Shown piece by piece: positions 3,901 to 53,321 of a stretch of 64,000 nucleotides of DNA. The notes under the pieces were generated by a model, which was not told where the DNA came from, did not search any database, and was given only the letters and a program-made list of their open reading frames with translations. The translations under genes were made by a program, and so were the position numbers. The stretch covers positions 889,607 to 953,606 of the forward strand of contig QPGO01000005.1 in assembly GCA_008632985.1 (NCBI GenBank). Direction: 5' to 3'. Origin of the DNA: Psammoneis japonica (Eukaryota). Position 1 is the first letter of the stretch. Each line of letters opens with the position of its first letter.

Positions 3901-6749
3901 ACAACAACATTCAATTTGAGCTGGCTGGGGCCACAGAAAATGGATGGGTTGCTCTCCAACAACATTCTTTCTTGTCAGGCTTGCAGCCCTGTTTTTTGCA
4001 CATTTTTCTCCGTGTGAAAGGTTGTTGAAAGAAGCCAACAACAGAGGTTGCATTGCTGGCAGTGCAAGCAACAAAGAGAACAGCACTCAGAAGAAGAGAA
4101 AGCAGCTCACCAATGTGATTCCAACAGTGCAGCAGCAACCCTGGCAACTTGCTTGTGCTGCAGCAGAGGGGGCATGCCATGATGCATGGCAGCAGATGCG
4201 TTTAATCTGTGGTGCTTGCCAATCATTTCATTCCAAATTTGCCACTTGCCACATCAGCAAAGTTCTCTTTTTGGGGGGCAGCATGCTTGCCCAAACCTTT
4301 GTTGCAAGTGTTCAAAAATCAAGAAGAGACAAGCACAAAAACAGATCACAACAGCGCACAAAGTGAGCAAAGTGGCAGCATTTCAAAAGGGCTCTTTTGT
4401 CTGCACCACCCCAATGGCTGAAGTTTGGTGCAAGCTGCTGAGTGACAATGTTGTCACTGTTGCCATCAATGTTGGTGCAAAGGCTCCAAAGAAGGGAGAA
4501 AATCTCCTGAAGGATGTCATCAAAGACAGAGGCAAGGCAATCTCATCTTGGCTGTGCTGCCCCTCCAAACAGCTGGTGGCCTTGGCTGCATGTGGGCTTG
4601 CATGGCAGCACCTGCTTGCTCAGGGTGAACAAAATCTTTCCAACTGCCAGCGCAGCAATGGGCAACAAGATGCCTCCAATTGTGAAAGCTCCATGGGCCA
4701 GTTGCACAAAGAACAAGAGCTCACAGCCATGATTCATTTGGCTGGTGCACAGCAGGCAAGAAGAAGCTTCTGATTGTGAAAGCTCCTTGCTGGACCAACC
4801 ACAAAGAAGTCAACTTGCAGCAACACAGAAGGCAGCACAGATGTGGAGTTCACCCAACAGCAGATGCTGTGCACAACAATTGAATGCAGAGACTCTGGCA
4901 CCTTCAAAAGTGAAGCCTGGCATTTGTTGCAACATGACTCACTCTCATGAGCTGGGCCTCTGAGACCAGTTGTTGACACATGAAGTGGCCTGCCTGACCC
5001 ACCACTGCTCATGGATGGGTTCTCAAGTTTGCCAAAATCAGATGGGAAACACAAGGCATCAGGCAGCAGCATGGTGCAATTCTTGAAAAAGCATGGAACA
5101 AAGTTGACAGCAATGCCATCTGGCAGAAAATGTGCAGGCAAGCACCGAGGAGCTCAAGAAGGACACCACAAGATGATGAAACCACAAGTGCCAGTTCATT
5201 CTCATCTGGAAGATGTTGTGGCTCTTGTTCAGAATTCACACTCTCTTGTTCAGAATTGTGTGTTCTCAACAAGTCCTTGACAATTGCCAGCGAAGGGAGT
5301 TTGTGGCAATTGTTCCAACCTTTCAAGTGGGATTTAACAGCTGAGCGATGTGACTCCTCTCAGTCTCATTGCACACACATTCTTGACAATTTTTCACATC
5401 TGCTCAATTTTGACATTCATTTCCATGTCCATTGACCACACAATGTCCACTTTGTCAATTACACTGACCTTTCAAGTGGGGGATGACAGTCAACAAAACT
5501 TGTCACTTGCACTTGTTTCTGTCTCAACAACCATGTGTTCACAACAACTTTCTGACATCATTCATTTCTGACAACAATGATGTTCAATTGTCTTGTCAAC
5601 CTGATTTCACATTGGCTGTGTGCTGATGCTTGTCATCTGATTTGCAAATGTCCCATTTTGTCATTTCTGTGCTGCACACCAAACAGTGCGCCCTTTTTCC
5701 CACTCTTGTTTTTCTCCTGCATTCCACCAGCTCTTGTTGTCCTTCGCATTCCCTGCAAATGAGTGTGATGTTTTGGTCCTTGTGTCCTCCTCCTTTGCAA
5801 CCACTCTTGCTCTCTCTGGGATTGTCCACGCCAGGCAACGACATTGTTGTCAATGATCTGTCTTGCGTTCCTTCTGTTTGGCAGGCCAAAGTGTCACCCA
5901 CAACAAGAGAAAACTTTGTGCCAATGATCAGGTTTTGTGCATGTCTTGTGTTTCTTGTGATCTTGTCTCATGTGCTGCTTCTGCTCACCTTTGTGCCCTC
6001 CCCCATTGCCTGTCTTCCATTGCAGCTCAGGCATGTGTCTGGATGTCTGTGTGCAAAGATGTGCACAAGTGTCAGTCTTTTGCATTGGACGCCCATTCTC
6101 CATGCATTTGCCACTTGTTTTTCTCACCTTGTGTCCTGCATTTTATTCCGCCCCATTTGCAATGCCGTTGCCCATCCCCACTGCTCTCATTGTCAGACAT
6201 TGGATGCAACTTGAGTTTGCATTTTTTCTTGTGTCTTGTGAGGGAGCAACAATTTGTGTTTTTGGCCAAAATGCAAGCCTGGCCATCAATTGATTCCCAT
6301 TGGCATCTCTTTTTCAGCAACAACATTTTTTTTTAAATCAATGATTTTGTTGCAACACAATGGTTTGAATGATCTGAAAAAACCTCAACGAATCATTCAG
6401 TCATTGAAGTCACACATGCATTCAACCAGCTTGATTTTGTCACACTGATGTGTTCTTGTTGAGATTGAAATTTTCACACTTGTGCTGCACACTCCCAGCT
6501 CTGGGACTTCAGTCAACACCTTTTTGCCATTTGATGTGTTCAAAAATTGCCGCTGCCAACAAGACAATTGGCTCTCTCCAGAAAGCTCAGAAACAGACCC
6601 TTCATGCCAGTGAAATGACAATTTTGGAGACCAACCTTGCAAGGAAAGTGGGCAACTTGAAGGTGGGTTGTGCCCTTCTGTTCTCTCTCAGTTTTCTTTC
6701 CAAACAAGAGACAGGGAACACCATGAATTTCCATTCACTGACTCCCTGC

Positions 6750-7920
6750 CCTGGTTGTTGCTGGCACCCCTGGGACACAATGGAGGCACCCAAGGCTGTT
6801 CAAAGACAACTGGGCACTTGTGCTGTCACACGGCACAGAAAGCTCCCTTGTCTCTGCAAGGTGAGGTGGCTGGGCCAAAGTGAGCCAATCACATCATGTG
6901 CAGAAAGGGGGTGCATTGGCCCAAGACCAGGCTTTGCCTTCCCAGCCATTGTTGTTCTTGCCTCCTCAGGGACCCAATGAAGTCTCTTGTGCCCATCCCA
7001 AGACAACTGAGTGCTCTTGTGCTGTCACACAGATGGCTCCCTTGTCTTTCTTGCAAATTGGTTCTTGGCTGGGCCAAACCCAGTCACGTCAGAGAGACAA
7101 GGTGCTGCACTGACACAAGATGAGGCCTGTGCTTCCCAACCATTGTTGTTGTTGTGTCCTCTGGGATCCAACGGAGTGGCTCAAAGCCATTCCAAGACAA
7201 CTGAACACTTGCACTGTCACACAGATGGTTTTCTTGTCTCTGTGGTGGTGGGGGCGGCTGGGCCAAACCCAGCAGTCATGTCAGAGAGACAAGGTCCTGC
7301 ACTGACACAAGACAAGGCCTTTTCTTCCCAAGCGTTGTTGTTGTTGGCTCCTGACAACCAAGCACTTGTGCTGTTGCACAGATGGTTTTCTTGTCTCTGT
7401 GGGTGGGGGGTGGCTCTGGGCCAAACCCAGTCATGTCAGAGAGACAAAGCATTGACACAAGACAAGGCCTTTGCTTCCCAACCATTGTTGTTGTTGCATC
7501 CTCTGGGACCCAATGGAGTCATCTGACACCATCCCAAGACAACGGAGCACTTGCGCTGTTGCACAGATGGTTTTCTTGTCCTTGCAGGAGGTGGGGTGGC
7601 TGGGCCAAAGAACCCAGTCATGTCAGAGAGACAGGGTTCTGTGTTGACACAAGACAAGGCCTTTGCTTCTCAGCCATTGTTGTCATTGCATGTTCCTCTG
7701 GGACCCAATGGAGTCATCCAATGCCATCCCAAGACACAGAGCACTTGCGCTGTTGCACCAATGTTTCCCTTGTCTCTGCAGGCTGGCTGGCTGGGCCAAA
7801 GCCAGTCATGTCAGAGAGACAAGGTGCCGCATTGACACAAGACATGGCATTTGCTCCCCAACCAAAGTTGTTGGCATGTCCCTGGCAGCCCACTGGAGTC
7901 CTCCAATGCTGCCCCAATGC
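6750..7920. repeat. Diverged tandem repeat, ~6 copies of a ~185 bp unit
   Basis: The anchor GGGCCAAA recurs at ~6872, 7071, 7260, 7418, 7602 and 7793, mostly followed by CAGTCATGTCAGAGAGACAAGG...TGACACAAGACAAGGCC. Confidence 0.9.
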
Positions 7921-8653
7921 ATCTGCGCTCCTCCTTTGTCACATCTGTGGGCCCCATGCTTCTGCACGTTGTGCGCAGCTGGGCATCTTCTTGTTTGTGG
8001 AGGAATCATGCAAGGGGCTGCTGCTGCCCAAGACAAGGCTTGCAGCTTCCCAAATCAAGAGTGCAAAGATGCCACAATTGGGCCAACTCACTCAACAAAT
8101 GCAGACTGAGTGCATTTGGGGTGCGTGTCATGCGGGCAGCAACTCAAACCAATGTGCCTTTGTCATGGTGATGATGATGATCTGGCTTGGCATTTTGCAA
8201 ATGTTTGCTGGGACATGGGGGCACCACCACATGCTCCATTTTAGTGTCTCAAATGACGTTGGCCTGTGCACCAAGCACCATCCACCCGGCAAGCCTGTTG
8301 CTCCAATTGGAGACACCAAGACATGTCATCAAACTCAACACCAGAATGAACCCCTGGGAACTGTGGATGTGAACTCTGGCCATTGTCTTCATTTGCGATG
8401 ATGGCAACAAAATGAAACAATCTTCCCAGTCTCTGTCATCTGGCAGTGGCTTTCCAAGCAGTGGCGCCATTGCTTGCTTCATGAGATGCAAAGACCATGC
8501 CTTGGCAAGTTTAAATCTAGGCTGCTCTTCCTGCTGTTCCCAGTGCTTTTCTTGCTGCAGCACTGGGGGTGTGCTTCCCAAAGTCATCGCAAGGGTTCAG
8601 GCCAAAATGGAGAAAGAAAAACACTGGAGATGTCATTGAAAATGTCTTTGGAG

Positions 8654-8655
<2 letters not shown>

Positions 8656-8685
<30 letters not shown>

Positions 8686-8692
8686 CATTGTT
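8656..8692 (+). repeat. (GTT)n microsatellite
   Basis: Run ttgttgttgttgttgttgttgttgttgtc seen directly. Confidence 0.9.
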
Positions 8693-8867
8693 GCACATCC
8701 AACCAGGACAACAAAGTGGATTGTGACAGGGGCGCACCATTGTTGTTGGTGGATGTTAGATCAGAGGGGATGAGTTGTGCGGTGTCCAGCAGGAAAAAAG
8801 GACAGATGCAGCAGAGACAGAGGAAAGCAAAGGCAGAGAGCTGGCAAAATGGAAGGAAAAGGAAACT

Positions 8868-10385
8868 GATGAAGCTGTTCTTGAGAGGTTTGAAATGAGG
8901 ACAAAATGAGCCACACAGGTGACTAAAACAAAGGCAGAGATCTGACAAATGGAGGGGAAAAATGAAGCTGTTCTTAACAAGAGTTTAAAATGAGGACAAA
9001 ATGAGCCACACAGGTGACTTCACACGATGCTTTTTGGCCACAGCTGCACAGCCATTGCTGTGATTTTTGACAAAAATGCTCACAACCCATGAAGTCAATT
9101 CTTTTTCTTTCCAAAACGCAGACACGCAATGCAACTCAAGTCAACCATGGGATCAGTTGCAGCGGCAGCAATGTTTGACACCAAGTGCAAGAAACATTTG
9201 GAGAGTGTGTTGAAACATCATTGCAATCACAAGGTGTGTGTCCCAAAGAAAGGCATCATCTTCACTCAATTCCTTTTGTCATCGTCTGAACTTTTCACTC
9301 AATTCATTTGTTTCTTCTGCATCGGACAATGCAGCGAATGTTTTGAAGGTCCAAAGTGGAGTGCACCCTGCAGCCACCCATGACTTGGATGTTGCATTCA
9401 AAAAAGATGACAGAGAAAGGCACGCACTCTTTCTTTGGTTTTGTTTTCTGTGTCAAAAACAAAAGCAAGCGTTGGCAAGAATCCTTGCTTGTCATGATCA
9501 TCTGTGACAATCAAATTGACTCAATGTCTGCATCAATTTGTCCATGAGTTTCAATCAATGACTCAAACACCACCCTCCATGACCCACGGAGACTGTCCTG
9601 GGGGCAGCTGTCAGGTGTCAAAAATTTGTGCAAGTTCCTGAGGAGCCACGCCAAGCAGTTGGACATTGGATCCTGTGAGCATGCCAGCTCCAACCAAATC
9701 AATTTGGAGCACAGCTTAAATTGTTCACATTGTCTGCAAAGAGGAATTTTCAAGTGGTCAATGCTTCTAAGATTGGGGCCAAACTGCAGAAAATGCTGCC
9801 AGCAACAATCAAGTGACAACAGCTGACGGGAACCCTTCGTGTCGGACACCCATTTTTGTCATTTTGCATGCACAGAACAATGTGCAGTTTGTCAATGATG
9901 TGGATTGAACACTGCACAATGGTCCAGGAAGCATCTGCTGCATGAAAGGGCATTGAATGTGAGCAACAGCAAGAATCAACAAGCACAGTCAGTGCCATTT
10001 AACCATGAAAGGTGGGTTTGAACCAGGGCTTGGTGAGTGCGCAGGCAGTTCTCTCTGCCGGGCTCCAAGCACTGGAAATCATTGCTGCAATGATGAGAAT
10101 GGCTTTGTCAAAGAGCAATGCCATGAAGTGCTGTGTCTCAAGAGTCTTGTCAACTGACACATCATGTGAAGCTTGCTCGAGTGCCTTTCAGAAACATGTC
10201 GCCAAGCTCACTTCCCTTGGCCACGACAGATTGAACCAGCAAACTGCAGCACACAGAGAAATCACTCATGTGAGCCACACAGGCAACTTGAACAAAGACA
10301 GAGATCTGACAAATGCAAGGAAAAAAAACAAATGAAGCTGTTCTCAACAAGTGCCCACAATGTGGACAGAATGAGCCACACAACA
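8868..10385 (+). repeat. Dispersed ~90-100 bp repeat: two tandem copies at 8868-9019 and related copies at ~10270-10385
   Basis: ATGAAGCTGTTCT...GGACA(A/G)AATGAGCCACACA and CAGAGATCTGACAAATG occur at both locations. Confidence 0.8.
9129..10260 (+). pseudogene. Decayed hAT-superfamily (DUF659-like) transposase remnant
   Basis: Fragments across frames, in the expected order: VCVPKKGIIF, SDNAANV (TDNAAN-like), VKNLCKFLRSH, RVLSTDTSCEACSSAF and HDRL (resembling the hAT C-terminal dimerisation motif R.LS...SS.CER.WS.F...RNRL). Confidence 0.5.
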
Positions 10386-11018
10386 TGTGGCTTGGAATGA
10401 GCAAAACAGACTCATTTGTTTGTGACTTGATGACTGCTGAGAAACAAAAATGACAATTGTGTGTGTTGAAAATCTGTGGATGCAATCAGCGCACATGTGA
10501 AAATTTCAATCATTGACAAGTTGCACTCTTGTCAAGCACAGAAACATGTTGCAGACACTCTGACGACATCTTTTGCTGCTGCTGTGCTTCAGCTGCTGGG
10601 TTCCAACAAAAGTTTGCACACTGCAACAATGGAATTTTGGCTGGCTTGGTCTGCAATGTGTGGTGGTTTGTGCAAATGCATCATCTGCAAAGGGGCAAAG
10701 CAAAGTTTTCATTTGAGCACACGCTTGGCACTCCTGACAACTCTGGCGCCGAAGAACTCCACCCACACACTTTGTTGCACCTGGCTTGCTCACAGCATGT
10801 GGCACACATTTCTCAGAAGTGACTTCTTGTTGCAACAAACAAGAAGAGAGAAGAAGTCAGCTGAGTGACAGCTGCAACAACAGCACTTTGTGCTGTTGGA
10901 CACATGAGACATTTGGGGCAAGGAGCATCTGCGCATTCCTGCCTGCACACAGGAGTCACCCAGGGAAGCAAGAAGGATGAAAGCAAAAGGGGGGAGTGAC
11001 ACATCAACAGCATTTGGC

Positions 11019-15117: not shown

Positions 15118-15239
15118 GCTTTTCTGGTGACAAGTAGTAGTTGTACGGTATTGTTGATGATGTGTGGTGTTGATGTATGATGTATTATGCAAGATGCAAG
15201 GGATGCAATGTGGATGCAAAAACATGAGAGGATAAAGAC

Positions 15240-16945
15240 AGACGCATTGACAAACTTCAGGCTGGCCGCCCGGCAGGCAAGCAGACAACAAATGTGAGCT
15301 CAGCGGCCTTTTCTTCGCACAAAAGAGACGAGATGCACTGCCACAAGGAGTCTCGTTGTGTTGCAAGGCCACCAGCAATCGACCCATGCAAGGCACAAGG
15401 CAGTTGGAACTTGTCATCTTTGTCGCTGTCGATTTCTGACAACAAGCAGCTGCCAGAGACCCCAAATGCTCCCGCAGCTGGTGCCCTTCTTTTCCTCCTT
15501 GCCCCACTCCTGTGCAGAAGCTGCGGGGAACAAAGAAAGTGAGTTTGAGTTTGTGCTGTCATCCTTTTCAAGCCAACCGACACAACTGGGCACAACAGGC
15601 AGAGACAACAGTGCACACTCTGCACAAAATTGATGCTCTGCTCTGTGTGCCTCTTTTTCCGTGGTCCATCGCCAGTGCACTCATCACCCCAACAACTTTG
15701 CTGCAGAGCTTGTGCTCAGAATTGCGTGGGCACCACATCACATGGCATCCAGCAGGAGTTTGAGCTTCAGCTGCACTGCTCCTTTTCTGCTGGCTTGTCC
15801 GACCTCCACAATGCTGTTGTGTGGAGAGCATCTTCCTTTCTGGCTGGTGCGTGTGTTGCTGCTGCAGCTTGGCACTCATTGATGGCACTGGGGGGAGCAA
15901 AAATGCACTGAGCACATGGAAAGTCAACTGGGATGTTGTCCTGTCTCTGCAACAAGCAGTTTGATGCATGGCCAGCTGTCTTTCAGCTTGGGGCAACTGA
16001 CAGCACACATGGCCACTCAAACTTGACAAAGAGGGAGAAGGAAAAAGAGAAACTTGCACATTTTGCTCAAGAAATGAGCAACACAATGCAGCAGAACAGG
16101 CAAGGTGTTCAGACATGGAAACACAGCTGCAGCACCTGGTCATGTGAAAATGTTGACTCATCACAATGAGTCTGCTGGGCCCGCTGCAATCCAGCCAGTT
16201 TCTTCCTGTCCCAACAAGAAGAGCATGGCACCAAGGGGCACAGGCACATTTGCAAATGCTGCCCCAAAGTGACAGTGGATGGCATGTGCAGGTCATGTGC
16301 CCAGAGGAACACAACAAACACGCGTCACACAACAAAAAGACTGTGTGTGCCATGCATGCTGCAGCACACCTCAAACATGCTCCTTCAAGTTCTGCTCCTG
16401 CATTGCCAACAAATTGGAGAAGCTCATTCCTCTTTTGGTCAAAAAGTTCAACAGCCTTTGAGAGCTGCTGCTTCCTGAGCCATTTTAGAGAGACAGTCAT
16501 GGCCAAGACCAACAGACCCATCACGCCAATTGTGCTTTCCCAGTTTTGTTCAATTTCAAATTTGATGGGGTTTTGTTGTTTGACTCACAGGTTTGTTGGG
16601 GCCTGCACACCAGCTGAGTGTGTTGGGTGCACTCATTGAAGAATCAACAGCTGGCAAAGTTCGTGAAGTGGAGAGATGTTTTCTGCTTGCTTCTTTCAGG
16701 GAAGGATGGGAGTGAGGGTTTGGGCTTGAGTTTTGTGACATGTGTTCTCTTTCTAGAGATTCTGTGGACAAGTCCCTGGAAAACAGGTGATTGCTCGTGC
16801 ATGTCACATTGGGGTGAGGGCAACACAGAAGTGGAAACACCTGCGGCACTTCAAAACACAGAGCAGAACAAAGCATGCTGGAAACGGAAGAGCTTCAGGG
16901 CGGCATCAGTGAAAAGGCCGACAATGTGGATGGTGTTGAATCGCT
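15240..16945. mobile_element. Degenerate repeat domain 2 (CpG- and TpA-depleted), element type not identified
   Basis: The only TpA seen inside are TTAG (~16486) and CTAG (~16754). No recognisable intact ORF. Confidence 0.6.
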
Positions 16946-17332
16946 GATATCTCTTGCTGGTGCTGCAAAGGATTGCCATCGAGCAAAACTGCACTTTCAT
17001 CAGAAGAAACTGAAAAAATTGAAATCAAAGAAGGGTGGCAACTTCCGGGTGCGGCAGACGTTGAGCGGAAACGAAAAGTCGACACTCGGAACGGCGAACG
17101 ATCATTCGAGCAATCGCAAAACGAAGGTACGCTTTGCAACCGGATGAAGAAAAAGCGCGGAAAGTTATCGTTAGGATTGGCGTAGTATAGATTTGTGGTT
17201 CAGGATTATCTTGTCTAGAGAAGTTACATTTTGCCACTAACTTTTATCTTTTGCAGTCCCTGTCATCCAAACTTAACTTACTAAAATGAACGTACAGCTG
17301 AAAAGAGCCATTGCGGATGCATTATTTCCCTG

Positions 17333-19830: not shown

Positions 19831-21199
19831 AGGGAATTTTGCCGTGAGTTTCTTTGCACTCGTTCACACACACCGTATTAATGTTACTTTCTCTCTGAAA
19901 GATACAATACGCTTGTGACAAGCTAACTCACCATGTTTATCGACATCGTGTAGAAGTACAATCCTCCCCTTCGATCTTGGATTGTGAGTGTTGTCGTGGG
20001 CGTGAAAGCAGCCGAATTATATGGAGTTGAGACGCCGTGTCGCATCGTTTCACAGAAACTCACCGAGAAACTTCCTAAGATCTTCCTGTCGTATCAATGC
20101 GCCAGATGCGGTCGAGTCAAGCACGGAAAGATGTCGTGTAGCAGTTATCGCGATGGTCTACCCCATTTTCGGAAACACGTGCCGAAATAATGCAGGGCGT
20201 TCAATCCATCAATCCCGATACCAGATCTCTTGCCCGATTTCAGGATTTCCCTGTGTACCCGTTTGGTGCCTCTACGGATGTCCCATATGAATTGGTCGTC
20301 GCCTTTACCGATGATCCTGCGATCATGTCTTCTGCCATATGTATCAGAATTGGAAGCGACCGGTGGAGAAGACACACGGGAAAGTCAGCCGGAGACAATT
20401 TGGCAGCCTCTCAAAGGACCTAACAAGGTTTCTTTCGGTATACTCCTAGAAGCTACATCTTGTTGTATGTGGACGGACTCTCCGTTTAATCCTCCCGAAG
20501 ACGAATTGTCCTATCCAACGTTTGCACATACGACCGAGGAACTCTTGGTGGCACTAACTGAATTGAAGGGCACCAGTGACTGGCCATTGTTATTCTTTGT
20601 TTTTTCGAAGAATAGAGCATGTTCTCGGGGACTTGTCGAGAACTTTCTCTTCCTGTCGGCACTGTCGGGCAGTTCAAATGTAGGGCTGACTATGACGCTT
20701 CTCATAGCGAAGGTGTTGCGTGCCCCTTGGCTACAAAGGGTGCCGTCAATGTTGGTGAAACAACTACGGACACTCTTTTAATGACTCTTTAGCCAATATT
20801 GCCACTAAGATTGTTCCTGGTCAGGGTGTCTCTCAGAGCATTGCAGAATCGATTCAAGAAGTCGACAATCTCAAGGAAGATGTGGGTTGCTAGTAGGTGC
20901 ATCGGGGGCGTCCGTTTGTATCTGCCACAACATGTTTCATTTTTTTATTAGCCATCACATGTGTGACCTACATTGCTTACAATAGAGATATTTGGAGGTA
21001 GGCGTCCTCACTTTGAGCGGGAGTAGCACAAGACAAAAGACCCGACCTGCACTGTTCAAAATGGTGTGGCAGCTGCGGCTGTTACCTGTTGTTCCATGAT
21101 CCAGCAACTGCTGGCAATGGTTGGGCAAGAGTGTGACAACGCAGAAGATTGCTTTATCCCCCCCCCCCCCCTGCAAATCTCCAAAGTCTTCTGCTGGTG

Positions 21200-21920
21200 T
21201 CTTGTGGCAATTGGCAACCCATCATCCATGGCGTGACCTCATGGGTGCCACACTCACATCCATTTGGAGGCCAATTCAGGGCCCAGCCCTGCCCAGCCCC
21301 ACCACTGCATGTCTTGTGAGTTTCTGATGAAAGACAGTGCCCTCTGCAAAATGTTGTCAACAAAAAGTTTTGCAGGATGTGCTGAAGTGCAGTGACAAAC
21401 TGGACAACATGCCTCCCCTCCAAGATCTCCTCTTGTCTTCTCTCCAGGCTTGGTTCTTCCAAAGTCAGATTGCACATTTGAAAAGGTGGATTGCCACTTG
21501 CAGACACTTTTCGACACTTGGAATGAAGCTGGGTGGCACCAGGTGCTTGACAGCTGACTCTCCTGCTTGTAAAACACAACTCAGCTGGATCATTTGCACA
21601 CAGACTTGGGCTTTCTCTTGGGTGGCCCCAGTCAGAGAACAAAATGCCCCCTGGCCAGTTGGCACAAGTTGGGTCTTTCACGTGGTCACAATGTGGATGC
21701 CAGAGAGTTGGCTCAATGCTGTCTCTTGCAGAGGCAGAGCTGACAGCTGTCTGAAACAAATGGCAAGAAGAAAGCATCATCCAGCCAAAGTTTGTGTGGG
21801 GCTGCTGGAGTTGGTTGAAGAACATTGGATGCATGGACTCTCAAGAACAACAAAGATGCAAAGAGTTGGATTGCAGTGGCTCAACCAACACTGGAGAACA
21901 GCCTCAACAAAGAAGGAAAG
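21200..21920 (+). pseudogene. 3' fragment of a non-LTR (LINE-like) retrotransposon ORF2
   Basis: Fragments LLSSLQAWF, WNEAGWHQVLDS*L (Q..IGW..L.GR-like), WIICTQTWAFSW and terminal WTLKNNKDAKSWIAVAQP resemble LINE C-terminal regions as recalled. No RT core is present. Confidence 0.4.
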
Positions 21921-22049
21921 TTTTTCAGGGTTTTGCTGCTCCTCCCCCATGCCATTGGTGCTGCTGACCATTTTTGTTGGGCACCATCTCTGGGTGGCAG
22001 CCCTCCCAGCCAATCATTTTCCCTTCTGCCATGCTGGATGGTGCAACAG

Positions 22050-23450
22050 AAGTGTGGGTTGGCACAGCATCAGAGAAGCTCTGGCCATTGCCTGCCATGA
22101 TCCAGCAACCATCAATGACATGGAATTGGCATGACAGCACCCAAGCAAAGCAAGATGACTCATCTTGCCCCTCTGCAAATCTCTAAAGTCTCATGGAAAT
22201 TTGCAAGCCATCCTCCAATGTGTGGCACATCATTGGCAAGCTGTGTTCATGTCTGTTTGGAAGCCAACTCAGATGCATTGTTCCTGGGCTCTGCTGTCTC
22301 ACTGGTTGCCCAAGTTTTTGGGTTGACAACAACATGTTTTTTCTTTCTGCTGGCTGGCTCTCATGTGCAGAAGAGAGCTGTCAAGCACATCATCTGCTGT
22401 TTGAGGCCACAGCTCTGGTGCCAGCCTTGCATGCCCACAAAAGCAGCAAACAGACAATGGGATGGAACAACAAGGAGCAGCCAGGAGGGGGGGAAAGCAG
22501 GTGTTTTTGGTGAACATCAAAAACCTGTGTGTCAAATCTCTCAGATCTTGTTTTGCAAGATCCAGTGCTTGTCTTGCCCACAATGAGGTGTCCCCACAAC
22601 CCACAGAACAACCCTTGTGCTCTCTCAAGGAGGTTGCAAAGAATGCAAATTCTTTGATTGTCAAGCACAACTTGTTGTGGACAATTTGCAAGAAACAGCC
22701 CATTTCTCAGATTGTTTGCTTTTTCAGGTCTGAGTCCAAACTTTTGCAGGAGCCCACACCCTTTTTGTTTTGCCCCACCAAATCTTTTGGGTCACAATGA
22801 TGCCTTCTCACGGCTCTCACAGTCTTCTGCCTCGTTTGTGAAGATGTGCTTGTTGTGCAAGATCTGGCACTTGGCCTTTTCTTTCCTGGCCAGCTCTTGT
22901 CCCTTTGCAGTGCTTGACTGCCTTGTTTGTGCTGGTTCTCTCTCCTCTGCAGCAGCTCATCAGCAGACTCTTGCACAGCAGCCACACCTCTCAAAACAGA
23001 TCAGAGGTGATGCAGTTGTCAGCGGAGGCAGTTGCCAGTGGAAGCAGTTGCCAGCAGAAACAGTTGCCTGGCATCTGGCGCCAGTCTCTGCTGCTTGTGT
23101 CTGACCAATTTGACAAAACCTGCAACATTTGCTCTCCTCCAAAGCTTCTGCTTTCTGCCTGTGGTGTGCCAACAGAGACAATGCACACAGCCAGGGGACA
23201 GTGCACATTGATTTGAGGGGCTCAATGCTGCAACGCTCATCACATTGGAGCATGGTCCACCCTTTGTCAACCACAGCACAGCTGACCTTGATTGAGCTCT
23301 TTGCATTTTTCCCAGCTGAGCAGTGCAGACCTCTGTGCTGCTCCATTTTACCCCGTGCGACGACCCCTTTGCAAAATTGTTTTTGCTGCTCTTCACTTGC
23401 AATTGGCTGCCCATCATTTTGGCTGCAGACTCCAGTTTTTACAGTGCACA
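22050..23450 (-). pseudogene. Possible decayed MULE/MuDR transposase 5' part
   Basis: ASEEQQKQFCK...IKVSCAVVDKGWTMLQ (MuDR-like DNA-binding pattern) followed by VIDGCWIM (first-Asp-like motif). Heavily degraded. Confidence 0.25.
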
Positions 23451-23993
23451 CCATGAAATTTCTGTGACAATTTGGATTCAACACAGGCACCCATGGGAAA
23501 AGTGAAGAACAGTGCATGCTCCGACAGAGTTTTGCCAAACGGAGAGCTCCTCTGGCTGCTGTGTGTCACAGCCCTTCATGTTGCTGTCACCAGGCAATGG
23601 GTGACAGACAGCATTGTTCTTTTTCAAACTTTGACCAAACATTTGCAGATGAGTGTGAACTGCCAATGGCAAGCATCAGGAGCTGCACTTTGCCTGGATC
23701 TTCATGATCCGCAGCAAATGGCATTGGCCTGGAACTCATGATGGCGTGCTTCGACGGAATCTTGCCGATCGGCGATCGGAGTTCTTTGCACGGTCGGATT
23801 CTGGATCTTTTCACTTTGCACTGTGTGGTTCAGTGTTCAGTGCTCAGTAGTGCGAACCCTCTCGTCGTGTCATGATGTTTTGTTGAGACAGTGACAGTTC
23901 CTCTTCTTGTTCGCTTGTTAGCACAAGAAAAGACTGTATCATGTTACATTGACATGCCGCATTTGCCTCAATCCTGAAGTTCTGACACTTTCT

Positions 23994-29035: not shown

Positions 29036-29484
29036 GTTATTTTTGTGTTGTGAGATGAAGTGATGGACGCAATGGCGCTTCGCATCTCGCACCGCCCGAT
29101 TGAACACGTCAGGATTCAGGATGGATCTTTTCTCGTTGCGCCTCATTGTTGTCTCGCGACGTCATGCGCGCAAAATGTGGCGGGAAAACCAAAGGCTCGA
29201 GCTCGCGCTCCCTGCTATTTTTTGTGATTGGTAGATGGTCCAAATGGGCCGAGCACAAAAGAATCATCGGCATCACAGCATCATCACAAAACATCCCTTC
29301 CTATTTATTTTTCTATCCTATCCTGCCTTTTTTCTATCCCACCTTTTTTCTATCCTAACTGGCGATATTTTCTATCCATAATTGAAAGCATGTGTATCAC
29401 TTCCATACGTAGAATTAATACCAGTGCATACGGCATTCTTAACGGTGNAGCATCATCAACAACAGCAATGATGCTTCAGACTCG

Positions 29485-32395: not shown

Positions 32396-33036
32396 TAGGG
32401 GCGTCGTAGTCGGGGGGCAGATTGTGCAGACGACGAGGAGACAAGACATGTGCGAGTACGGGGGGTCAATCCAATGATTTCTATTTTTCTTTTTGTGGCG
32501 CTTCTTGTGTGGGAAAAGGCGGCACTGGTAGATGAAAACGCTGTAGCCTAGTGTTGTAATTTGTAGAGGCCTCTCTATCATGACAAGGTGGAGCAATGAT
32601 ATATCGAACCTTAAAGGCAGCGTCAATCGCGGAATGGTCTTGGAACTCTTGCGACGGTGTAGTTTCTCTTGTTCTCTGGCGTCCAAGTCGGTGAATACAA
32701 TCCGTAAGCTTCCTGTATGTCGGATGCGAGTAGCCGGTCTCGCTTGCGATTGCAAGGTGCTGCCCAGTCAGAATACCCTAACCCTTTCCACATTTTACAA
32801 CATGCTTTGCTCCATTGCCAGACCGGTGTGGCTTCTTGATCATCCCAATCCTTGTATTCATGTCACTGTCTTCTTCTTTGTCCTTCTTTGTCTTCTTTGT
32901 TGTTGTCCTGTGTTGTTCTTTTTCCGTTTTCTCTTCCTCATTGTCCTTGTCATTGCCAGAAAGCTCTGTTGTTGCTTGTGTTCTCATCTCTGATTCTGCC
33001 GGTTTTTTCTTCATTTTTGCTCCCTTGCCCTTTTAA

Positions 33037-34570
33037 TCACTCACCTGTTTCTTGCCTTTGCTGCACGCTGCACCATGTGTCAAACTGCACACCCTGCTCA
33101 CTTGCCCTGTCTTCCTTCACCTCCACAAGCATGATGTTGAGTTGCTTTGCTCCTTCATTCTTCCAAGAGTTGCGCTGTTGTGCTGTTGGTGGGTCTGTGC
33201 ACAAGGGCGCCAGTGTCATTTCCTTCTCCTCTTCTTTTCTCTCTTCATTTCCCTCTTGAATGTTCTTTTCCTTCATGGTCTTGTGCTCCCAAATCTTCCA
33301 GCAGTTTTCCAATTTCAACATCAGCCCCAGAGCCTCATCACTTGCCGCAGTCAGCTCTGCAGCCTTGGCAATTCCAGACTCCACCATCTTTCTCCAAACC
33401 GCAGTGCTCTTTGTGAATTTTAGAACATTGTCATAGAGCCATGTGCATGCGTCCTTGTTTGTCTGCTTTGCACTCACAATGGTCTCCACCATCTCTTTCT
33501 CCCAAGTTGCCAGGAACTGTTCTTCAATGGCCACAGCTGCCTTCTCATTTTTTGTTTTATTTTTGCTTTTTCTTGTGGCTTTCTGTTGTTGCTCATGGAC
33601 CCCTTGGCTTTGTCTTTTGTCAACATGACTGCAGTGAATGAGCACTGTGTTGGCCGCACCACAATCAACACCTTCTTGTCAATGCTTCCCGTGGCACTTG
33701 CCTCTCAATGCATTCTTCCATGTTGTCTGGGTGACGGCATTCCTCTTCACATTGATTGCATTGAGGATGCACTTTTTTGCCCAGTTTCCCACAATCCTGC
33801 CCAGTCTTGCTTGTTGAACCTGCCACTGGCTGTGTTTTCCACATCAGCCATGACACCTTGCCACCACTTGCCAGGTCTGTCTTGCCAAGGAATTTCACTT
33901 TTGGGAACAGCATTTTTCAGGCCATCTTTTTGACCTCTCTCCTCAAAGATTGGTGATCTCCAGCAGCTCCTGCTTGCAACAACATCACCACCAACCTTGT
34001 GCTGTTTGGTGGGTCGGACTCCAGTGCAGCCAGCAGGAAAACAACCAAACCTGGGTTGCACATGTTTCTCAATGAATCCACTGCTGTTGATGTTGTTTGT
34101 TTGTTTCTTTCCTTTGTGATCAACGTTCATTTCAAACAAAGCTCATGACTGTGCTTCCATCTTTTTAAGTTGCAAATTGCTTGTCAATGAGTGCATTTAA
34201 AATCAACCAAAGTGCACACACAAACATTCACACCTGTGAAAGTTTTAGATTTTGGAATGAACCACTTGGCAACCATCCTCCTGCCATTCTCCTTCCATGC
34301 CATTTTCTCCATGGGTTGCCCCAACTTGTCTCCAATCCAATTCTTCCAGATCTTCCATGGCATCTTCTCCAAATGAACCAGGACAAAATGTTTGCACCGC
34401 TCATTGTGAGAACAATCTGTCATGTGATCAAATGCATTTGTCACCTCATGAACACAACGCACAAATCTCTCCAAGTGTTTGTGACACAGTTGCTCTTTCT
34501 TCTGCATGCACTCATTTCTGCAATGGCATCTCTCCTTCTTGTCTTCACAGGTCATGCTTGCAATCATGAC
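33037..34570 (-). pseudogene. Decayed transposon-associated accessory ORF
   Basis: LFPKVKFL, INVKRNAV, ASDEALGLMLKLENCW, PLCT, SWKNEGAKQLN...VKEDR. These match my recollection of a repeated protist TE-associated family (SDEAF.LL.LENYW...YT...W..EG..RFN...V..DR). Confidence 0.45.
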
Positions 34571-36299
34571 TTGGGCTCTCTTTCTTGATCAACTCCAGCA
34601 CCCAACTGTTGACCATCCTCAGGGTCAACTCACAGACACCATTTTGTCACACATTCAACCAAATGCCTGATGGGGTGTCACAAACAGCCAGCTTCCTGGC
34701 ATTGAACATGGTGCCCTTTTTGTCCATGACAAACATGCACACACCTGCTGACTTGGAATTCAAGCATGGTGGTCCACACGCTCTGTTCCTGTCCATTCCA
34801 CAGGCAGGCAAGCCAATGTTTGGCATCCTTTTTGACTCATGAACGTCTCTCTCGCCCAAAGTAAATCACATGTTGTCCCCCCCTTGATCTGGCACAGCAC
34901 TCATCTCTCATCTCCACATCTTCAATGGGGTGGTTGAAACAATTGGCACAATGTTGCTGCTCTCTCTGCCTGTCCTCCTGGGCAGGTTGCAATGCACTCC
35001 CAATGCTGCCTGCATTTGTGTGCCTCCCTCCCCTGTTCAACAATCTCATCCACCCAGCAAATTGTGCCAGCATTGGAGAACATGGGTTGCACCCCTCCCA
35101 CGCTTTGCTCATCAACCAACATTTGTCCATCCACCAATCCTTCCATGTTCCATGCACTTTTGTTTTCACATCACCAGGTGCCACTTTGATCATGGCCAAT
35201 GCACAAAACAGGTTGAGGCAGCCTTGGCACAGGCAAGGGACATCTGTTTGTTCCCTGCTTCCACTGCGCAACCAGCGGCGCACCTTGTCTCTGCTGAATG
35301 ATGATCCACTTCCATGATTTCTTCTCTTCTTTGTCTCTTGTGCCAGTTGGCTCTGCAAATCTCTCCCCAGTGGTCATTAGCCAGCATGCAATTGACATGT
35401 CATTCTGGACACAACTGACTTGTGGCTGATGTTGGGGTTGCTTGTTGCTCAGTTTTCCCATGCCATGTGTTGTTGATGGGTTTGTTGAACACATCTCTGG
35501 GGATGGCAATGGATTTCTGTGTGTGGCATCACTGTGTTCCATGCAATGGAATTCACAGTGAGTGATGACCAGAGTGCTTGCAAACAACCATTGGAACTTT
35601 CTTTCTCCTTTCTGCAGACAACCCCAACTTTGTAATCTGGCATTTGTCTCAAATGCATCATTCCTTCAAATGACTGCATTTCATTGGCACCTGCAAAAGC
35701 ATTCATTCATTCAAAGAAAACAATGCACTGTGTTTTTGCACCAACTCTGTGTCTTGCATCCCAAGTTTCCCACCACAATTCACCCACTTTGCTTGACCAA
35801 ACCAAACTGGGCTGTGATTGTGCATCTGCGTCGTGCATGGCACAACTTGCTCTGGTTGCAAGGATGAATCACTGATGAGCATGGTGACCAAGGGACAATT
35901 GCCTGCCCATGCTGCAAACAATCCTTCACGTGCATGCTCAGCCACTTCAACCACAATCCACATTGCCTTTTTGTTGCTTGCAAACGGCCAAGTTTTTTGC
36001 CGAGATCCAGTTGTCCCATCCTTTTAACCCCCCAAAGGTGTGAAACAGGGAGCCTTGACAATGTGACGAGAGAGATGTCAGAAGAAACATTGGTCTCACA
36101 CAGAAAATTAACACTGGGAATCTTGCGCAGAAATGCCAATCCACACAGCAAATGGATGGTCATAAAGTGATGCAGATGGTTCACCCAAATGAACACTGGC
36201 AAGGGACAGAACTTTCACCACATCAGGTGAAGATTTGAGCAGCCGGCAGGAGAAAAAGAAATTGTTGTGGGCAGATGGGCATGATGGAAAGATGATTGC

Positions 36300-37200
36300 A
36301 TCAAAAATGTGTGATTGTTGGTGAGCATTTCTGAAGTGCATGGAATTTGCACTGGATCCTGCACAGAAAATGCGCCAAATCTGCAAAAAAATGCCAAGCA
36401 AGACAACAACATGAAAACCATGAGGCATCAATGCCAGTCATTTTCCACTGAAAATTGTTGCACATTGTGCTGGATTGAGGGTGAGCCAGTGACAGAAGTG
36501 GCCAAAAGGGTGTCGGGGCCCCAGCAAAATGACGTCTGAAAAGGGCGACATCAGAGCAGCACAGCAGAAACACATGTTAAAGAGAGCCGTGGGCTGCACC
36601 AGGTGTGGCCTGTGATTTGGGGTCACACCGATGGTTGTGCCAAACATTGTTGATGTGCTTTGGTGCTGCACTTTCTTTTGGTGTTTGCCACAAATGAAAC
36701 ATTGTCTTTGACCATGCCATTGGAGCACCTGGACATGGCAAGGAGAGGCAGATGGAGCCAGAGCCTGCATTGAATCACTCGTGCATCAAAAAATGCAGTC
36801 CACAGCTCTTGCAGGAGCCAATGATGAGAATGGGAAAATCAGAGCTGATGCTTTGGTTGTGGATGACAATGAGTTTGACCCTCTCATGACTGTTGAGGCC
36901 AGTGGGTGGGTCAGCAAGGGAGTGCATCTAAACCATGTTCTTCCAAGGGCTAGAGGTTGGCAAACCCAGCAATGCTGAGGAATGCCAGACAAAAGAGTGT
37001 TGCTCAAGCAAGTTGCAGTTGCAAACATTGAGCTCAATGAACCATTGGCCTTCTGCACTGCCAAGAATGCACAACAGGAGTGAGGCTTTTCACTTCTTGG
37101 CCCACTTCATTTGAGTGAGGATGAGCACAAAGCCATCCTTGATGCAATTCACAAGCATGGGTTGATGGACTGTTTTGAGGAATGCAAGGAGGGAGGAGGA
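36300..37200 (+). pseudogene. Decayed DDE transposase, Sola2-like
   Basis: AKQDNNMKT, IWGHTDGCAKHC*CA (36615-36659; DGC..QY[RK]-type motif), then DHAIGAPGHGK (to 36742) followed by ADG, i.e. the DGC...HGK...DG signature. Confidence 0.65.
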
Positions 37201-37469
37201 GGAGGGACAACCACAACAGCAAAACTGGTGAGTTTGAGGAAAAGAGAATGATGATGAGGAGGAAGAGGACAGCACAGAAGTGGGCTGTGAGGAGGATGAG
37301 AAGAGCATGGGGGGGACAGTGAATGTGATGAGTCTGACAAACAAAATGGTGTCACTTTGCATCATGCAGCCAAATGAACCATCTCACACAAGAGCTTTCC
37401 TTTTGCCATTTGCCTGCTGCCACACTGTGCTTGGTTCCGCACCTTTTTTGCCACATGTTTCACCTCATG

Positions 37470-38100
37470 CTCCTCATTTCCAAGACACCAATTCAAGCAC
37501 TTGATGTCCTTTGCTGGCAATGCAAAATGGTGATCGGAGTCAAAGATCCAACCATGGCACAAGGCACACAGTGGTTGTTTGCCAGATGGCACAAAGTCAT
37601 GCAGCCATCATTGCAGGCCATCACATCAAATTCACCACCCACTTCCAAGGAAATGGTTTGATGCAAACTTCCCCAAAACTTTGATTTTGAGTTTGTTGGT
37701 GGGAACTTTCCCTTCAAACAATTGCTCAGCATGTGCTTTGCAAACAACACATGCATTTGTTGTCAGTGTCAGCTCAGCTGGCAGATCTTTTGATGTGAGA
37801 TGCAATGCAGCCTCTCATTTCCAGGTTGCCAGCACAATGAAGAACGCTGATCAGGGATGAAAACATGCAAGTGTCACTGTGCTCTTCTTGTGAGAACATC
37901 ACAGGCAGGCTGCTTGTTGGCAAGTTGGCATCCAATGGCATCAAAACATTTCCTTCTGACAAGATTTAAAACCCTCCTCAGGCTTCCAGTCTTTAAAATC
38001 TTTCCAAACATCTGGAAACTGCATCTTGAAATTGCACTCAGCCCAATCCAGGGTCACATGCATTGGACAGTTGCCCTGCAGGATGCAGCCAACAAAATTG
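37470..38100 (-). pseudogene. Decayed papain-fold (C39-like) peptidase ORF
   Basis: LDWAECNF, FSQEEHSDTCMFSSLISVLH (Q..C), NHCV, GWIFDSDHHFAL and LNWCLG give an ordered Cys/His/Asp triad pattern across frameshifts. Confidence 0.45.
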
Positions 38101-40811
38101 GCACCCCGTTGTGAGATGTGGAAGTTTTTGCATCTCCTCCTGACTCAATCTCTTGAGTCTTCCAACCTGTGGTGTGTTGCAAATCACATCCACCTTGTGC
38201 TTGATCTCATTGATGCATCTTTGATTTAATTTTAGCATGTTCAATGAGGCCTGCACACATTTCCATGGGATGGCCATTCAATGCATTGGCCCTTTGGTCA
38301 AACCATTCTTCACACAGCATGACGCCCTTGTTCTCCTCAGCAAAGCAACCAAACAAGAAGTCAGCAACAGCTCCTGTGGAATTGCCAGGCTGTGGAAGCT
38401 TCACTCCAAACAATTTTTTTAATCTGCAACATGGCTTGAGCATCATTGCGCACTTGCTTGGTCACCTCCCTTTCTTTTTGGTGGCACTTGCTGTCTTTGC
38501 TCAAACCAACAAAATGCAGGTGTTCTTGGTTTTGGCTTTGAAAGCCAGTGAGATCACACATTGTTTTCCACTCCAGTTGTGGCTTTCATGAGCTCCATCT
38601 GGCACCTGCGATGCATGTCTCCTGCCCTCTCCTTCTTCTCTGCCTTTGTGTCTCTGACTGAGAAGTCTTCTGCATTCTTCATGCCCCCCCCCCCCTGCTC
38701 CTGCTCCTGCTCTTCCTCCTCTTCCTCAGTTGATTCATCCATGCCTCACCCTTGATCCTCCTCCACTTTGTTGTCATCTTAGAGTTGCAACCTTTTTGTT
38801 CCCTTGTCCCTTGTCTGCTTGTCTGCCTCTTTCATTTTGTTCCTTTTTGTTCCCTCATTTGCCTCTTGCTTTTCATCCTCCTCTGTCTCAAGCATTTCCT
38901 CCACCATCTTGGCATGAGTCAAGCAATTATGGAGTTGCATTCTTCTGCAAAACAAGCACCATTGCAGATGGGGAGCCACCTTGCACCAATCAGCAAGGCA
39001 AGTCAGTGGCTCCTTGAAACAGTCCTTCTTTCTTGGGCACTTGGGGAAGTGAACTTGCAACATGTGTTTGTCATTGGTGGCAGCCTCCGCCAACTTTGAG
39101 CAATGATGCAGCAAAAAAGACCTGCACAGCTGATCTGGGGGGCAGCAACAGTTGGAGAAAATCTGTCAGCTGCAGAAACCCACAACACATTGTTGCACCA
39201 TCAACCCACAATGACATCAAACAATGCCTCCGATGGTGTTGTCTCTTTGGGGTTGTGTGGACCAAACGGGAAAATCTTCTGGCAACCATGACAGCCACTG
39301 CAACATGTGAGCACTTTATGGAGATTGTCTGTTTGTTCATGATCCTCCCTTTTGCAATGCACATGATGAAAAACACAGTCCCTGTTGTTGTCCACATTGG
39401 CCTTCTTCAACTTTTTACATTGGACAGGTGGTGTGCGATGCTTCTTTTTGTCCACATGTTTTTTCTCAGCAATTTCTGATTTAACAGACCAACAGTTGTG
39501 TGTTTCACACCAGCTCCATTTTGCAGATAAAATGGGGTGAGTTGTTTCTTGACGAAACTTGACATGCACTCCCTTCACTGCCAATGTTTCAAATTCGTTC
39601 TTCTCTCGCCCCAACCTGGACTTAATTTTCCACCATCTGCAATGCCCGATTTTGCCAAAAAAAGACCACACAGGTCTTCTTTAGATCTTTGGTCAACATT
39701 TCAGGGTTGTGCCTTTCCAGGTCATCAATGTTGACCACACTGTCATTGCAAATTTGGTGCTTGGCAAGGCTAAAATGTGGCTTCAGCAAGTGGCTCCTCC
39801 CAATGTTTTTCATCTTTGCACATCTCGCTGGCAAGGTTGACATGCTCTGGGCTGGAATGAGGCAATGCCAAAACAGTTGCAGAGCTCATTGGAGCAACCT
39901 CACAATCTCCTTTGCATGCAGAGCAGTGGCATTGCCTCTGTCGTTTTTCACAAGCTTGCCCCACTCCCTGTGCTTGTGGACCTCCACCAAGTCTGAACAT
40001 TCAGACATGTCATCCGTGATGTCCTTGAAACCCATCATGACCAAGAATTCACACAAGTTGGGCAAAGGAGCTGCACCTGTTGAAAATGCAGAGTGGCCAA
40101 CACAGCAAAGCAGCAAACTGGCGCATTCATCAACAATCTGTGCAAACAATGCATTGCACAATTCATGCCAAGCATGAGCATCAATGGAAAATGTTGTGAT
40201 GCAAATGCTCTTGACTTTCAGGTTCTGCAGGAATGAAGGCAGGCACACTCATGGGGGAAAATGGCGGCTGTTTCATGGAGAATGGTGTGCTCCTCCTCCT
40301 GCGACAAGGATCGGATGCCACAACAATGAAGTGTGTCATCTGCCACAGACAGTTGACATCTCATTGCCATGTGCACAAAATTGCTGTGAGAAAGGAGGCA
40401 AGAACCCAGACTTGCTCCACAGCATCTCTGGCACAACAGGTTGGCTCGAACCAACAACTTCATGACTTCATGTGCCAATCTGTCTTTTCAGTTTGTTGTT
40501 TGGTTGGTTGGCATGTCTCACACCCAACATGTCTTCACCATGAGCGAAAACAATGAAGCAAGGCAGCGCAGGCCAGCCAGCCAGGATGTGCATGAACACA
40601 AAAGCGCAGTTGCCCAAAATCGAAACTGCAACGCGAATGAAGAATCCAATCTCAAATCGCGATCGAACATCAGACGTCGTGCGCGTGTTCGTGTTCGTTT
40701 CATTCCGTTGCCTCCAGTTGCTTCAGCCCTTAGTCCGTTATTATATATTCTTTGCTGACTGCTACATCTTTGCCACTCTATCCACTGGGCGTAAAGCTAA
40801 GAAAAAGCACC

Positions 40812-53051: not shown

Positions 53052-53321
53052 TGTGCTTGGTCGCAGTACTCAAGGGTAAACAGCGGCGATGTCGTCCATG
53101 GTCAATGTTGAAGATCAGTATGATGTCCGGCCTACTGACAGACCGATATGCCACGTCACACACCCAAAGCTCAAAAAGACGGACAAACGCACGAGCGAGC
53201 GAGCGAGCTTCTTAGCGGATTGCGTCTGTCTGCCTCACGAATTTGATTTACGCATCCCGAAAAAACTGCGCCACAAAAAAATGGCGTCGTCGGAGGTGCG
53301 TCGTCCAACGAAGAAAGCATC

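Follow-up and report, generated by a model that had tools for sequence, protein, structure and literature searches.

The 64-kb window of DNA analysed here (64,000 nucleotides of Psammoneis japonica contig QPGO01000005.1, positions 889,607 to 953,606, forward strand) holds the decayed catalytic core of a transposase-like gene, hereafter the relic, in which the second-Asp (TDGC..QYR) and third-Asp (GHGK..DG) motifs can still be read. Four blocks with sharp edges, together one third of the window, are poor in the dinucleotides TA and CG, and the relic is found in one of them. Judged against intact relatives, in which Tyr (TAY) stands where the relic has Cys or His and Arg (CGN) where it has a stop or His, the sequence shows change from TA to TG/CA and from CG to TG/CA, and two adjacent codons, TGT and TGA, record one each. 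We consider it probable that a host-driven loss of TA and CG, with a deaminase as the putative agent, struck silenced mobile DNA here.

On the plus strand, positions 36627-36656 read ACC GAT GGT TGT GCC AAA CAT TGT TGA TGT (TDGCAKHC*C), with the TGT codon at 36648-36650 adjoining the TGA codon at 36651-36653. LHF follows downstream in the same frame (CAC, 36669-36671), and GAPGHGK is found at 36722-36742 (+) in the next frame, after a one-base shift. These strings and positions (TDGCAKHC*C, LHF, GAPGHGK, 36648 and 36651) had been reported in an original prediction made from the letters of the window, and re-reading reproduced them exactly. A 1130-position profile built from 63 related proteins was searched against the six-frame translation of the whole window; three of the 16 rows returned had E<0.01, all on the plus strand at 36555-37188 and in profile order. 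The match is beyond chance, since three segments are colinear and, among 30 shuffles of all four TA/CG-poor blocks that preserved dinucleotides, none scored above 0.2 bits. Segment 2 reads NIVFDHAIGAPGHGK at 36695..36745 (+), profile positions 745-759. Segment 3, which opens with the DG of the third catalytic Asp, gave only 1.4 bits when searched alone (hmmsearch, E 0.003 with Z=1) and is colinear with the others. What is left is a fragment of ~640 bp, interrupted by two frameshifts and by three TGA stops in frame, and by a large internal gap, profile positions ~800-1010 being missing between segments 3 and 4. Profile positions 1-698 were unmatched in a three-frame search of 35640-36556 and anywhere nearby, so that the region of the first catalytic Asp (RDYAE) was not found upstream of the relic. 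The relic keeps DGC, PGHGK and DG, and has Q, Y and R replaced by H, C and a stop, which would be the losses expected of a mutated family member.

The direction of change was read from a profile alignment of relic codons with the intact relatives. The motif is close to invariant in the latter: profile columns 722, 724, 727 and 729 hold D, C, Q and R in 51 of 52 sequences each, and columns 723 and 728 hold G and Y in all 52. From a family motif (DGC.KQYRC...LYF...GHGK) it had been proposed that TAT changed to TGT at 36648, CGA to TGA at 36651 and Tyr to His within LHF. The motif agrees with the hidden Markov model (HMM) consensus of the 63 relatives, etDGCakQYRcanAlyLL ... viDRaigAPGHGK, and the first two changes are borne out, Tyr standing in 52/52 and Arg in 51/52 relatives; Cys or His are not native at these two codons. 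The change within LHF is plausible, with Tyr in 33 of 52 relatives, and weaker in that the column also holds Phe (12), Trp (6) and one native His. The proposed polarity, TA to TG/CA in formerly coding DNA, thus holds against intact relatives, and the same is true of CG to TG/CA. Across 52 conserved columns, 26 were unchanged and 26 changed, and ten of the latter revert by a single step (four TA, six CG). With the consensus residues permuted, 3.0 such columns arose on average and 8 at most, and none of 5000 permutations reached 10. In the five Tyr-rich columns (Tyr in 48-100% of relatives) Tyr is kept in none, the relic reading C, H, H, C and Q. One Ile column has become Val. Over all 151 aligned columns Tyr is seen 0 times (5.5 expected) and His 12 times (5.4 expected).

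The relatives' loci come from a scan of metagenome contigs for the two-part motif, written as a short degenerate pattern; it returned at least 120 loci where a rough estimate predicts a handful of chance matches; the same scan over viral contigs returned none. An open reading frame (ORF) of at least 200 aa covers the match in 45 of the 120 loci listed. The other 75 have less than 200 aa over the motif, many with broken ORFs, and some loci are short or lie at the end of a contig. Four loci (L009, L024, L030 and L044) read TDGC..QYRC ... APGHGKG, in close resemblance to the relic, and the 909-aa ORF of L009 used as query retrieved the 63 relatives (516-1357 aa). None of these carries a Pfam domain, and those with a species name come from Attheya sp. 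(six) and Fragilariopsis cylindrus (two); the family of the relic is thus without a Pfam model, and its named members are from diatoms. With proteins of ~1100 aa, the TDGC..QYRC ... APGHGK subfamily of the relic is distinct from a wider 'SDGC..Q[YF]K ... HGKG..DG' family, with which it likely has a DDE/D-type catalytic core in common. The wider family is abundant in environmental contigs and likewise has no Pfam model. The label 'Sola2', which the original prediction had suggested, was not confirmed for the relic or the wider family. The four intact loci have ordinary TA contents (observed/expected 0.62-0.73). No TA-free locus occurs among the 120 listed (lowest observed/expected 0.39), in a scan whose pattern itself demanded a TAY or TTY codon.

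The L009 core (471 aa; 47 alignment rows, from 44 of the 63 relatives and three locus ORFs) was modelled with AlphaFold2, with a mean pLDDT (predicted local distance difference test) of 87.5 and a pTM (predicted template modelling score) of 0.86. The model places D56 after strand 1, the TDGC aspartate (D160) after strand 4 and the GHGK..DG aspartate (D201) at the start of the helix that comes after strand 5. The three residues are invariant in the 47 sequences and placed like a DDE/D catalytic triad; L009 is predicted to have an RNase H-like fold in which the three acidic residues occupy the canonical DDE/D places. The top 15 rows of a VIA-align comparison were all transposases or integrases, with Z of 7.6-8.8, values near 8 being middling by the program's own rating. 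Mos1 was the best match (Z 8.8, 173 residues aligned), retroviral integrases scored 8.2-8.7, and Metnase, IstA, TnsB, Sleeping Beauty and Hermes were also among the top matches; Foldseek returned nothing for the model at E<=0.001. Several copies per genome (Attheya) and contigs of 4-6 kb fit a mobile element.

The relic sits in block 4, a ~7.5-kb insert flanked by a MutS-like gene and the next host gene. TA makes up 0.27% of dinucleotides in the blocks and 3.87% outside (a 93% loss), and CG 0.80% and 5.84%, respectively (an 86% loss). TG and CA together rise to 22.61% from 14.57% outside, and the sum of pyrimidine-purine (YR) steps stays at 23.68% in the blocks versus 24.27% outside. The G+C content (0.47-0.49) is the same in and outside the blocks. 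TG and CA are about equal in each of the four blocks, neighbouring sites show no autocorrelation, and 4-kb windows lying wholly in blocks have observed/expected values of 0.02-0.13 for TA and 1.7-1.9 for TG/CA. A steady YR sum with TG matching CA is what in-place conversion of TA and CG to TG and CA on both strands would leave. The effect extends equally to non-coding repeat arrays and to block edges. In block 1, a tandem array at 6743-7917 (about six units of 185-197 bp, 72-83% alike) has five mixed YR columns of TG, CA and residual CG; three contain the residual CG and none contains TA. Blocks 1-3 gave no family match, and comparing the blocks with themselves, by blastn and in a purine/pyrimidine alphabet, revealed tandem arrays only and no common family. 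As TA-free DNA lacks TAA and TAG stops, long ORFs occur in all six frames of the blocks: 135 have at least 82 aa, the longest 348 aa (examples are 7355-8398 (+), 15571-16584 (-) and 21331-22131 (+)), and none matched a family at E below 0.004. These ORFs are likely spurious, and TA-free blocks of this kind may mislead gene callers.

The loss obeys a neighbour-base rule. Only 55 TA are left in the blocks, 21 of them in TTAA (29 expected), and sites that present T-A-Y on both strands have vanished (0 left, 246 expected; Fisher p = 4e-15). Per-strand survival of TA depends on the 3' base, being ~0.85 before A, 0.33 before G and <0.1 before C or T, and mixed contexts survive roughly as the product of the per-strand values. 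The products follow the same rule independently of the survivors, with gains per kb of +28 for CAA and +9 for TGA, +31.5 for TGC and +17.5 for CAC, +25 for TGT and +14 for CAT, and +21 for CAG and +15 for TGG. TA loss is thus strand-local and neighbour-dependent, far stronger in T-A-Y than in T-A-G and sparing T-A-A. CG survival per strand varies with the 5' neighbour of the cytosine, being 0.17 after T, 0.25 after C, 0.33 after A and 0.61 after G, giving the order of loss T-C-G > C-C-G > A-C-G > G-C-G. The changes affect both strands equally. A strand-local rule that depends on neighbouring bases speaks for an enzyme. TadA and ADAT2 act on the substrate context U33-A34-C35, and adenine base editors derived from them showed an early 'YAC' preference; by this analogy T-A-Y points to TadA/ADAT2 substrates more than to those of ADAR, whose preferred 3' neighbour is G.

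The process proposed would be run by the host and aimed at silenced mobile DNA, and would not be ordinary drift. Diatom transposons are CpG-methylated, and the CpG loss would most likely reflect deamination of methylated cytosine. The TpA loss would most likely reflect enzymatic deamination of adenine in DNA to inosine, read as G, by an enzyme that resembles TadA/ADAT2 rather than ADAR. The two losses were probably separate processes in one common chromatin territory. At the block edges, five shoulders (1008 bp in total) have 0.1% TA, 6.55% CG and 17.96% TG+CA, and TA loss may therefore reach 100-300 bp beyond CG loss. A fuller version, which we put forward tentatively and as a possibility short of an even chance, is that diatoms possess an enzyme-driven mutator that converts the adenine of 5'-T-A-Y, spares T-A-A (leaving TTAA immune) and, together with a T-C-G-biased loss of cytosine, erases silenced mobile DNA. 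Such a 'reverse RIP' (after repeat-induced point mutation, RIP, of fungi) would be common to diatoms and chlorarachniophytes, would be ancient or repeatedly evolved, and may use a TadA/ADAT2-like enzyme.

The closest known system is the chlorarachniophyte Bigelowiella natans, in which TpA->TpG/CpA hypermutation of integrated viral DNA has been described (Mettrop et al., bioRxiv preprint 10.64898/2026.01.13.699255). In mutation-accumulation lines, 230 of 231 A:T->G:C mutations in two integrated viral regions, all on TpA, were recorded; TpA-poor clusters were enriched in transposase and reverse-transcriptase domains, and an ADAT2-like enzyme was proposed (10.64898/2026.01.13.699255). The window has in common with Bigelowiella the clustered TpA depletion with gain of TpG and CpA in four blocks, and the A:T->G:C direction at TpA (Tyr to Cys or His and the Ile to Val column, a small sample). 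A mobile target, comparable to the foreign DNA hit in Bigelowiella, can be recognized in block 4 only. It differs in that the host is a diatom (a stramenopile) and not a rhizarian, that CpG is lost in the same blocks, and that only the end state is seen, whereas new mutations were measured directly in Bigelowiella. The words CpG, trinucleotide and context occur 0 times each in the available preprint text (10.64898/2026.01.13.699255), and the T-A-Y/TTAA rule and the CpG loss with its own 5'-base rule are new relative to it. No diatom case of TpA hypermutation was found in open-access papers and preprints, and TpA hypermutation is in print for Bigelowiella only, in that one preprint. Like fungal RIP, the pattern consists of sharply bounded, near-saturating transition mutagenesis of mobile DNA with stops and a dinucleotide signature. 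RIP itself does not fit: it turns CpA into TpA and makes DNA AT-rich, whereas here TpA is removed, G+C is unchanged and A->G makes up half of the chemistry. CpG decay of methylated transposons is similar in that CG->TG/CA is confined to repeat blocks and residual CG is polymorphic between repeat units and copies; it differs in that the decay here is unusually complete, follows the T > C > A > G rule for the 5' base and is coupled to TpA loss. The resemblance to TadA/ADAT2 and the derived adenine base editors lies in the target, an A preceded by T/U and followed by a pyrimidine, and in a product read as G; their natural substrate is tRNA, and that of the putative enzyme here would be chromosomal DNA.

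Contigs from public runs of one sample were also aligned to the window. Those of run X1, which may be the assembly's own data, cover block 4 at about the depth of the flanks, with 116 of 460 aligned pieces at least 99% alike and a 311-bp piece at 38287-38598 without a differing letter. The X1 differences comprise 164 transitions and 49 transversions; of the 40 listed among 219 differences, 34 lie in the block and represent 31 events. Three are TG<->CA double switches between copies (34374/5, 34676/7 and 35151/2), the mark expected of copies that resolve one ancestral step differently.

Several observations weigh against a targeted TA/CG process acting on mobile DNA. Next to the TGT codon, the Gln conserved in 51 of 52 relatives has become CAT at 36645, a transversion outside such a process; a Tyr present in 34 of 44 relatives reads CAA (Gln) and a weakly aligned Tyr reads Leu, neither by a single TA step. 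The TA direction rests on few columns, four conserved ones of TA type and one with 48% Tyr, and 5 of the 26 changes are also 'explained' by a sham process that acts at purine-pyrimidine steps, since TAT->TGT equally fits AT->GT. Among the 31 in-block events in X1, only 12 fall on YR steps. In the context expectations, host DNA takes the place of the inserts as they were before mutation. A mobile-element gene is recognizable in just one of the four blocks, and Pfam finds nothing in any. The loci L009, L024 and L044 lack convincing terminal inverted repeats, though they may stop short of the element ends, and the relic has no recognizable ends; it is the fold, the copy number and the contig pattern that support the term 'transposon'. 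Finally, TA-free runs of at least 120 bp also occur at 13 places in host DNA away from block edges, which weakens the argument from the shoulders for two processes.

A single TadA/ADAT2-like deaminase (cytidine deaminase fold) with a 5'-T preference, hitting the A of T-A-Y and the C of T-C-G in silenced DNA, would leave CpG loss without any need for methylation. The two losses do fill the same blocks and share the 5' T, by definition in T-A and as the most depleted CG context in T-C-G, and the available preprint text cites amphioxus and Trypanosoma ADAT2 as acting on both A and C in DNA (10.64898/2026.01.13.699255). The same text reports new Bigelowiella mutations as A:T->G:C only (10.64898/2026.01.13.699255), the block-edge shoulders lost TA and kept normal CG, cytosine loss seems tied to CpG, the classic methylation context, and the losses differ in completeness (93% and 86%); we regard a single enzyme as unlikely. 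A modified thymine is likewise an unlikely agent: an oxidised or otherwise modified T in 5'-R-T-A, such as a hydroxymethyl- or formyl-uracil silencing mark, would pair with G and yield T->C. T-A-Y and R-T-A are one and the same site seen from opposite strands, so the base that is hit cannot be told from the sequence. Oxidised thymines do mispair with G, and dinoflagellate hydroxymethyluracil favours TpA. We know of no thymine-modifying enzyme of this kind in diatoms, and the accessible literature on hydroxymethyluracil and diatoms yielded only one dinoflagellate review.

The remaining explanations place the change in RNA, in the sequencing or before insertion. ADAR-like A-to-I editing of double-stranded retroelement transcripts, followed by reverse transcription into DNA, would draw on the 5' U that is also ADAR's preferred neighbour according to the available preprint text (10.64898/2026.01.13.699255). 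The relic, though, derives from a gene for a DNA transposase, each of the four blocks has TG and CA products in balance between the strands, a 3' preference of Y > G >> A is unlike the 3'-G of ADAR, and non-coding arrays and block edges were hit alike, making this very unlikely. We give equally little credence to a base-calling artefact, in which modified heterochromatin bases were misread (A as G, C as T) and the assembly is wrong. Strand-conflicting miscalls could also yield balanced TG/CA without runs. Against an artefact, the X1 contigs reproduce the block, a point that is not independent if X1 is the assembly's own data. The copies also differ by TG<->CA double switches, and the relic carries frameshifts, a ~200-codon gap and untyped substitutions, by which it is truly dead. 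That the inserts evolved or arrived poor in TA and CG, through selection or donor bias and with no mutation in place, is hardly credible: the changes destroy invariant residues of the catalytic core and create stops, the intact relatives have ordinary TA, and the YR sum equals that of host DNA.

Host-run loss of TA and CG by deamination, the reading we prefer, would have consequences beyond this locus. That genomes may be defended by targeted A-to-G mutagenesis of DNA is a very recent proposal, based on one alga, and the window would add a second lineage in which the same signature is seen at saturation, in the distant and genetically tractable diatoms. The comparison with intact relatives provides an independent, protein-based proof of direction that is small but clean. 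With the T-A-Y rule, which is testable on oligonucleotides, fewer enzymes need to be considered as candidates; if the proposal is true, a TadA/ADAT2-like enzyme would be a natural DNA adenine base editor.

Direct searches with the relic's own sequence failed. Pfam gave no family at E<=0.1 in a six-frame read-through of 33000-40504 (X at stops), and its best value for the 135 ORFs from all four blocks was noise (E = 0.0047). A phmmer search of the relic frame (35640-36761) against 1.84 billion proteins had a sole match at E 3.7e-4, rejected as an unrelated Fibrinogen_BP-repeat protein. A word-based homologue search with the relic gave no candidate with three common words, and a profile of 21 broader-family ORFs found nothing in the window at E<0.2, the relic included. 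The minus-strand strings ENCW and PLCT, which had been interpreted as altered ENYW and PLYT, are present, but the subfamily consensus contains no ENYW and no PLYT. The ENCW region scored E = 6 against the subfamily profile and likewise against the profile of 21 broader-family ORFs, and ESM Atlas returned nothing at 0.9 or above for the ENCW ORF (best 0.89, of low recognition and a lead only). Coordinates are collected in Table 1.

Table 1. Relic, changed codons, blocks and block edges in the window (codon rows give the residue in the relatives and the relic codon)
Feature	Position	Strand	Basis
Relic of second catalytic-Asp motif (TDGC..QYRC), now TDGCAKHC*C	36627..36656	+	sequence and column table
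Relic segment 1	36555..36692	+	hmmsearch 6.3 bits, E 6e-4; profile positions 699-742
Relic segment 2, shifted frame	36683-36745	+	hmmsearch 8.3 bits, E 1.5e-4; profile positions 740-760
Relic segment 3, third frame	36751..36861	+	profile positions 763-799; weak match
Relic segment 4, C-terminal region	36880..37188	+	hmmsearch 12.9 bits, E 6e-6; profile positions 1011-1113
Tyr 52/52 to TGT	36648	+	column table
Arg 51/52 to TGA	36651	+	column table
Ala 47/52 to GTG	36663	+	column table
Tyr 33, Phe 12, Trp 6, His 1 (n=52) to CAC	36669	+	column table
Ser 36/51 to TTG	36678	+	column table
Arg 49/51 to CAT	36713-36715	+	column table
Gly 42/44 to AGT after GCC	36901	+	column table
Tyr 29/44 to CAT	36925	+	column table
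Arg 35/42 to CAT	37156	+	column table
Tyr 20/42 to TGT	37171	+	column table
ENCW ... PLCT strings	33196..33309	-	strings present (ENCW 33298-33309, PLCT 33196-33207); no homology found
Block 1	1500..11000		TA 20, CG 79, TG 1028, CA 1105 in 1600-11000
Block 2, between cyclophilin-like and ClpP-like genes	15500..17000		dinucleotide counts
Block 3, upstream of RtcB gene	21000..23700		dinucleotide counts
Block 4, holding the relic, ~7.5-kb insert	33000..40500		TA 29, CG 58, TG 816, CA 862 in 33050-40500
TA-free shoulders with normal or high CG	11190-11409, 15234-15523, 16949-17127, 23710-23847, 40545-40730		composition

The rest of the window is gene-dense eukaryotic DNA, with host genes for an Alg9-like mannosyltransferase, cyclophilin, an RRM protein, ClpP, RtcB, DUF4336, MutS, A49, an ALKBH8-like fusion and ABC transporters. 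The closest named matches of RtcB, at 65-68% identity, are proteins of the diatoms Amphora, Entomoneis, Cyclotella and Thalassiosira, which marks the host as a diatom; the best match overall reaches 77%. The MutS-like gene (29449-32477) is spread over three consecutive ORFs (domains III and V), which implies frameshifts or short introns, and a single N stands directly before it at 29448. At 32037-32096, one of two contigs shows five differences at about equal depth (64/120), suggesting two haplotypes of a heterozygous diploid. In the host gene to the right of block 4, 78 bases bounded by GT..AG are absent from an X2 contig (joint at 41112/41191) and probably form a short spliceosomal intron; the run is labelled DNA, with a question mark, and behaves like RNA. 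X2 contigs aligned to the flanks of block 4 and not to its interior, which is no sign that the block is silent. An 828-aa ORF without a Pfam match contains a 60-bp tandem repeat of 3.2 copies, free of indels, at 51077-51267. In the 907-aa ORF at 53247-55970 a 2OG-Fe(II) oxygenase is joined with a methyltransferase domain, as in ALKBH8; it is probably an ordinary tRNA-modification gene.

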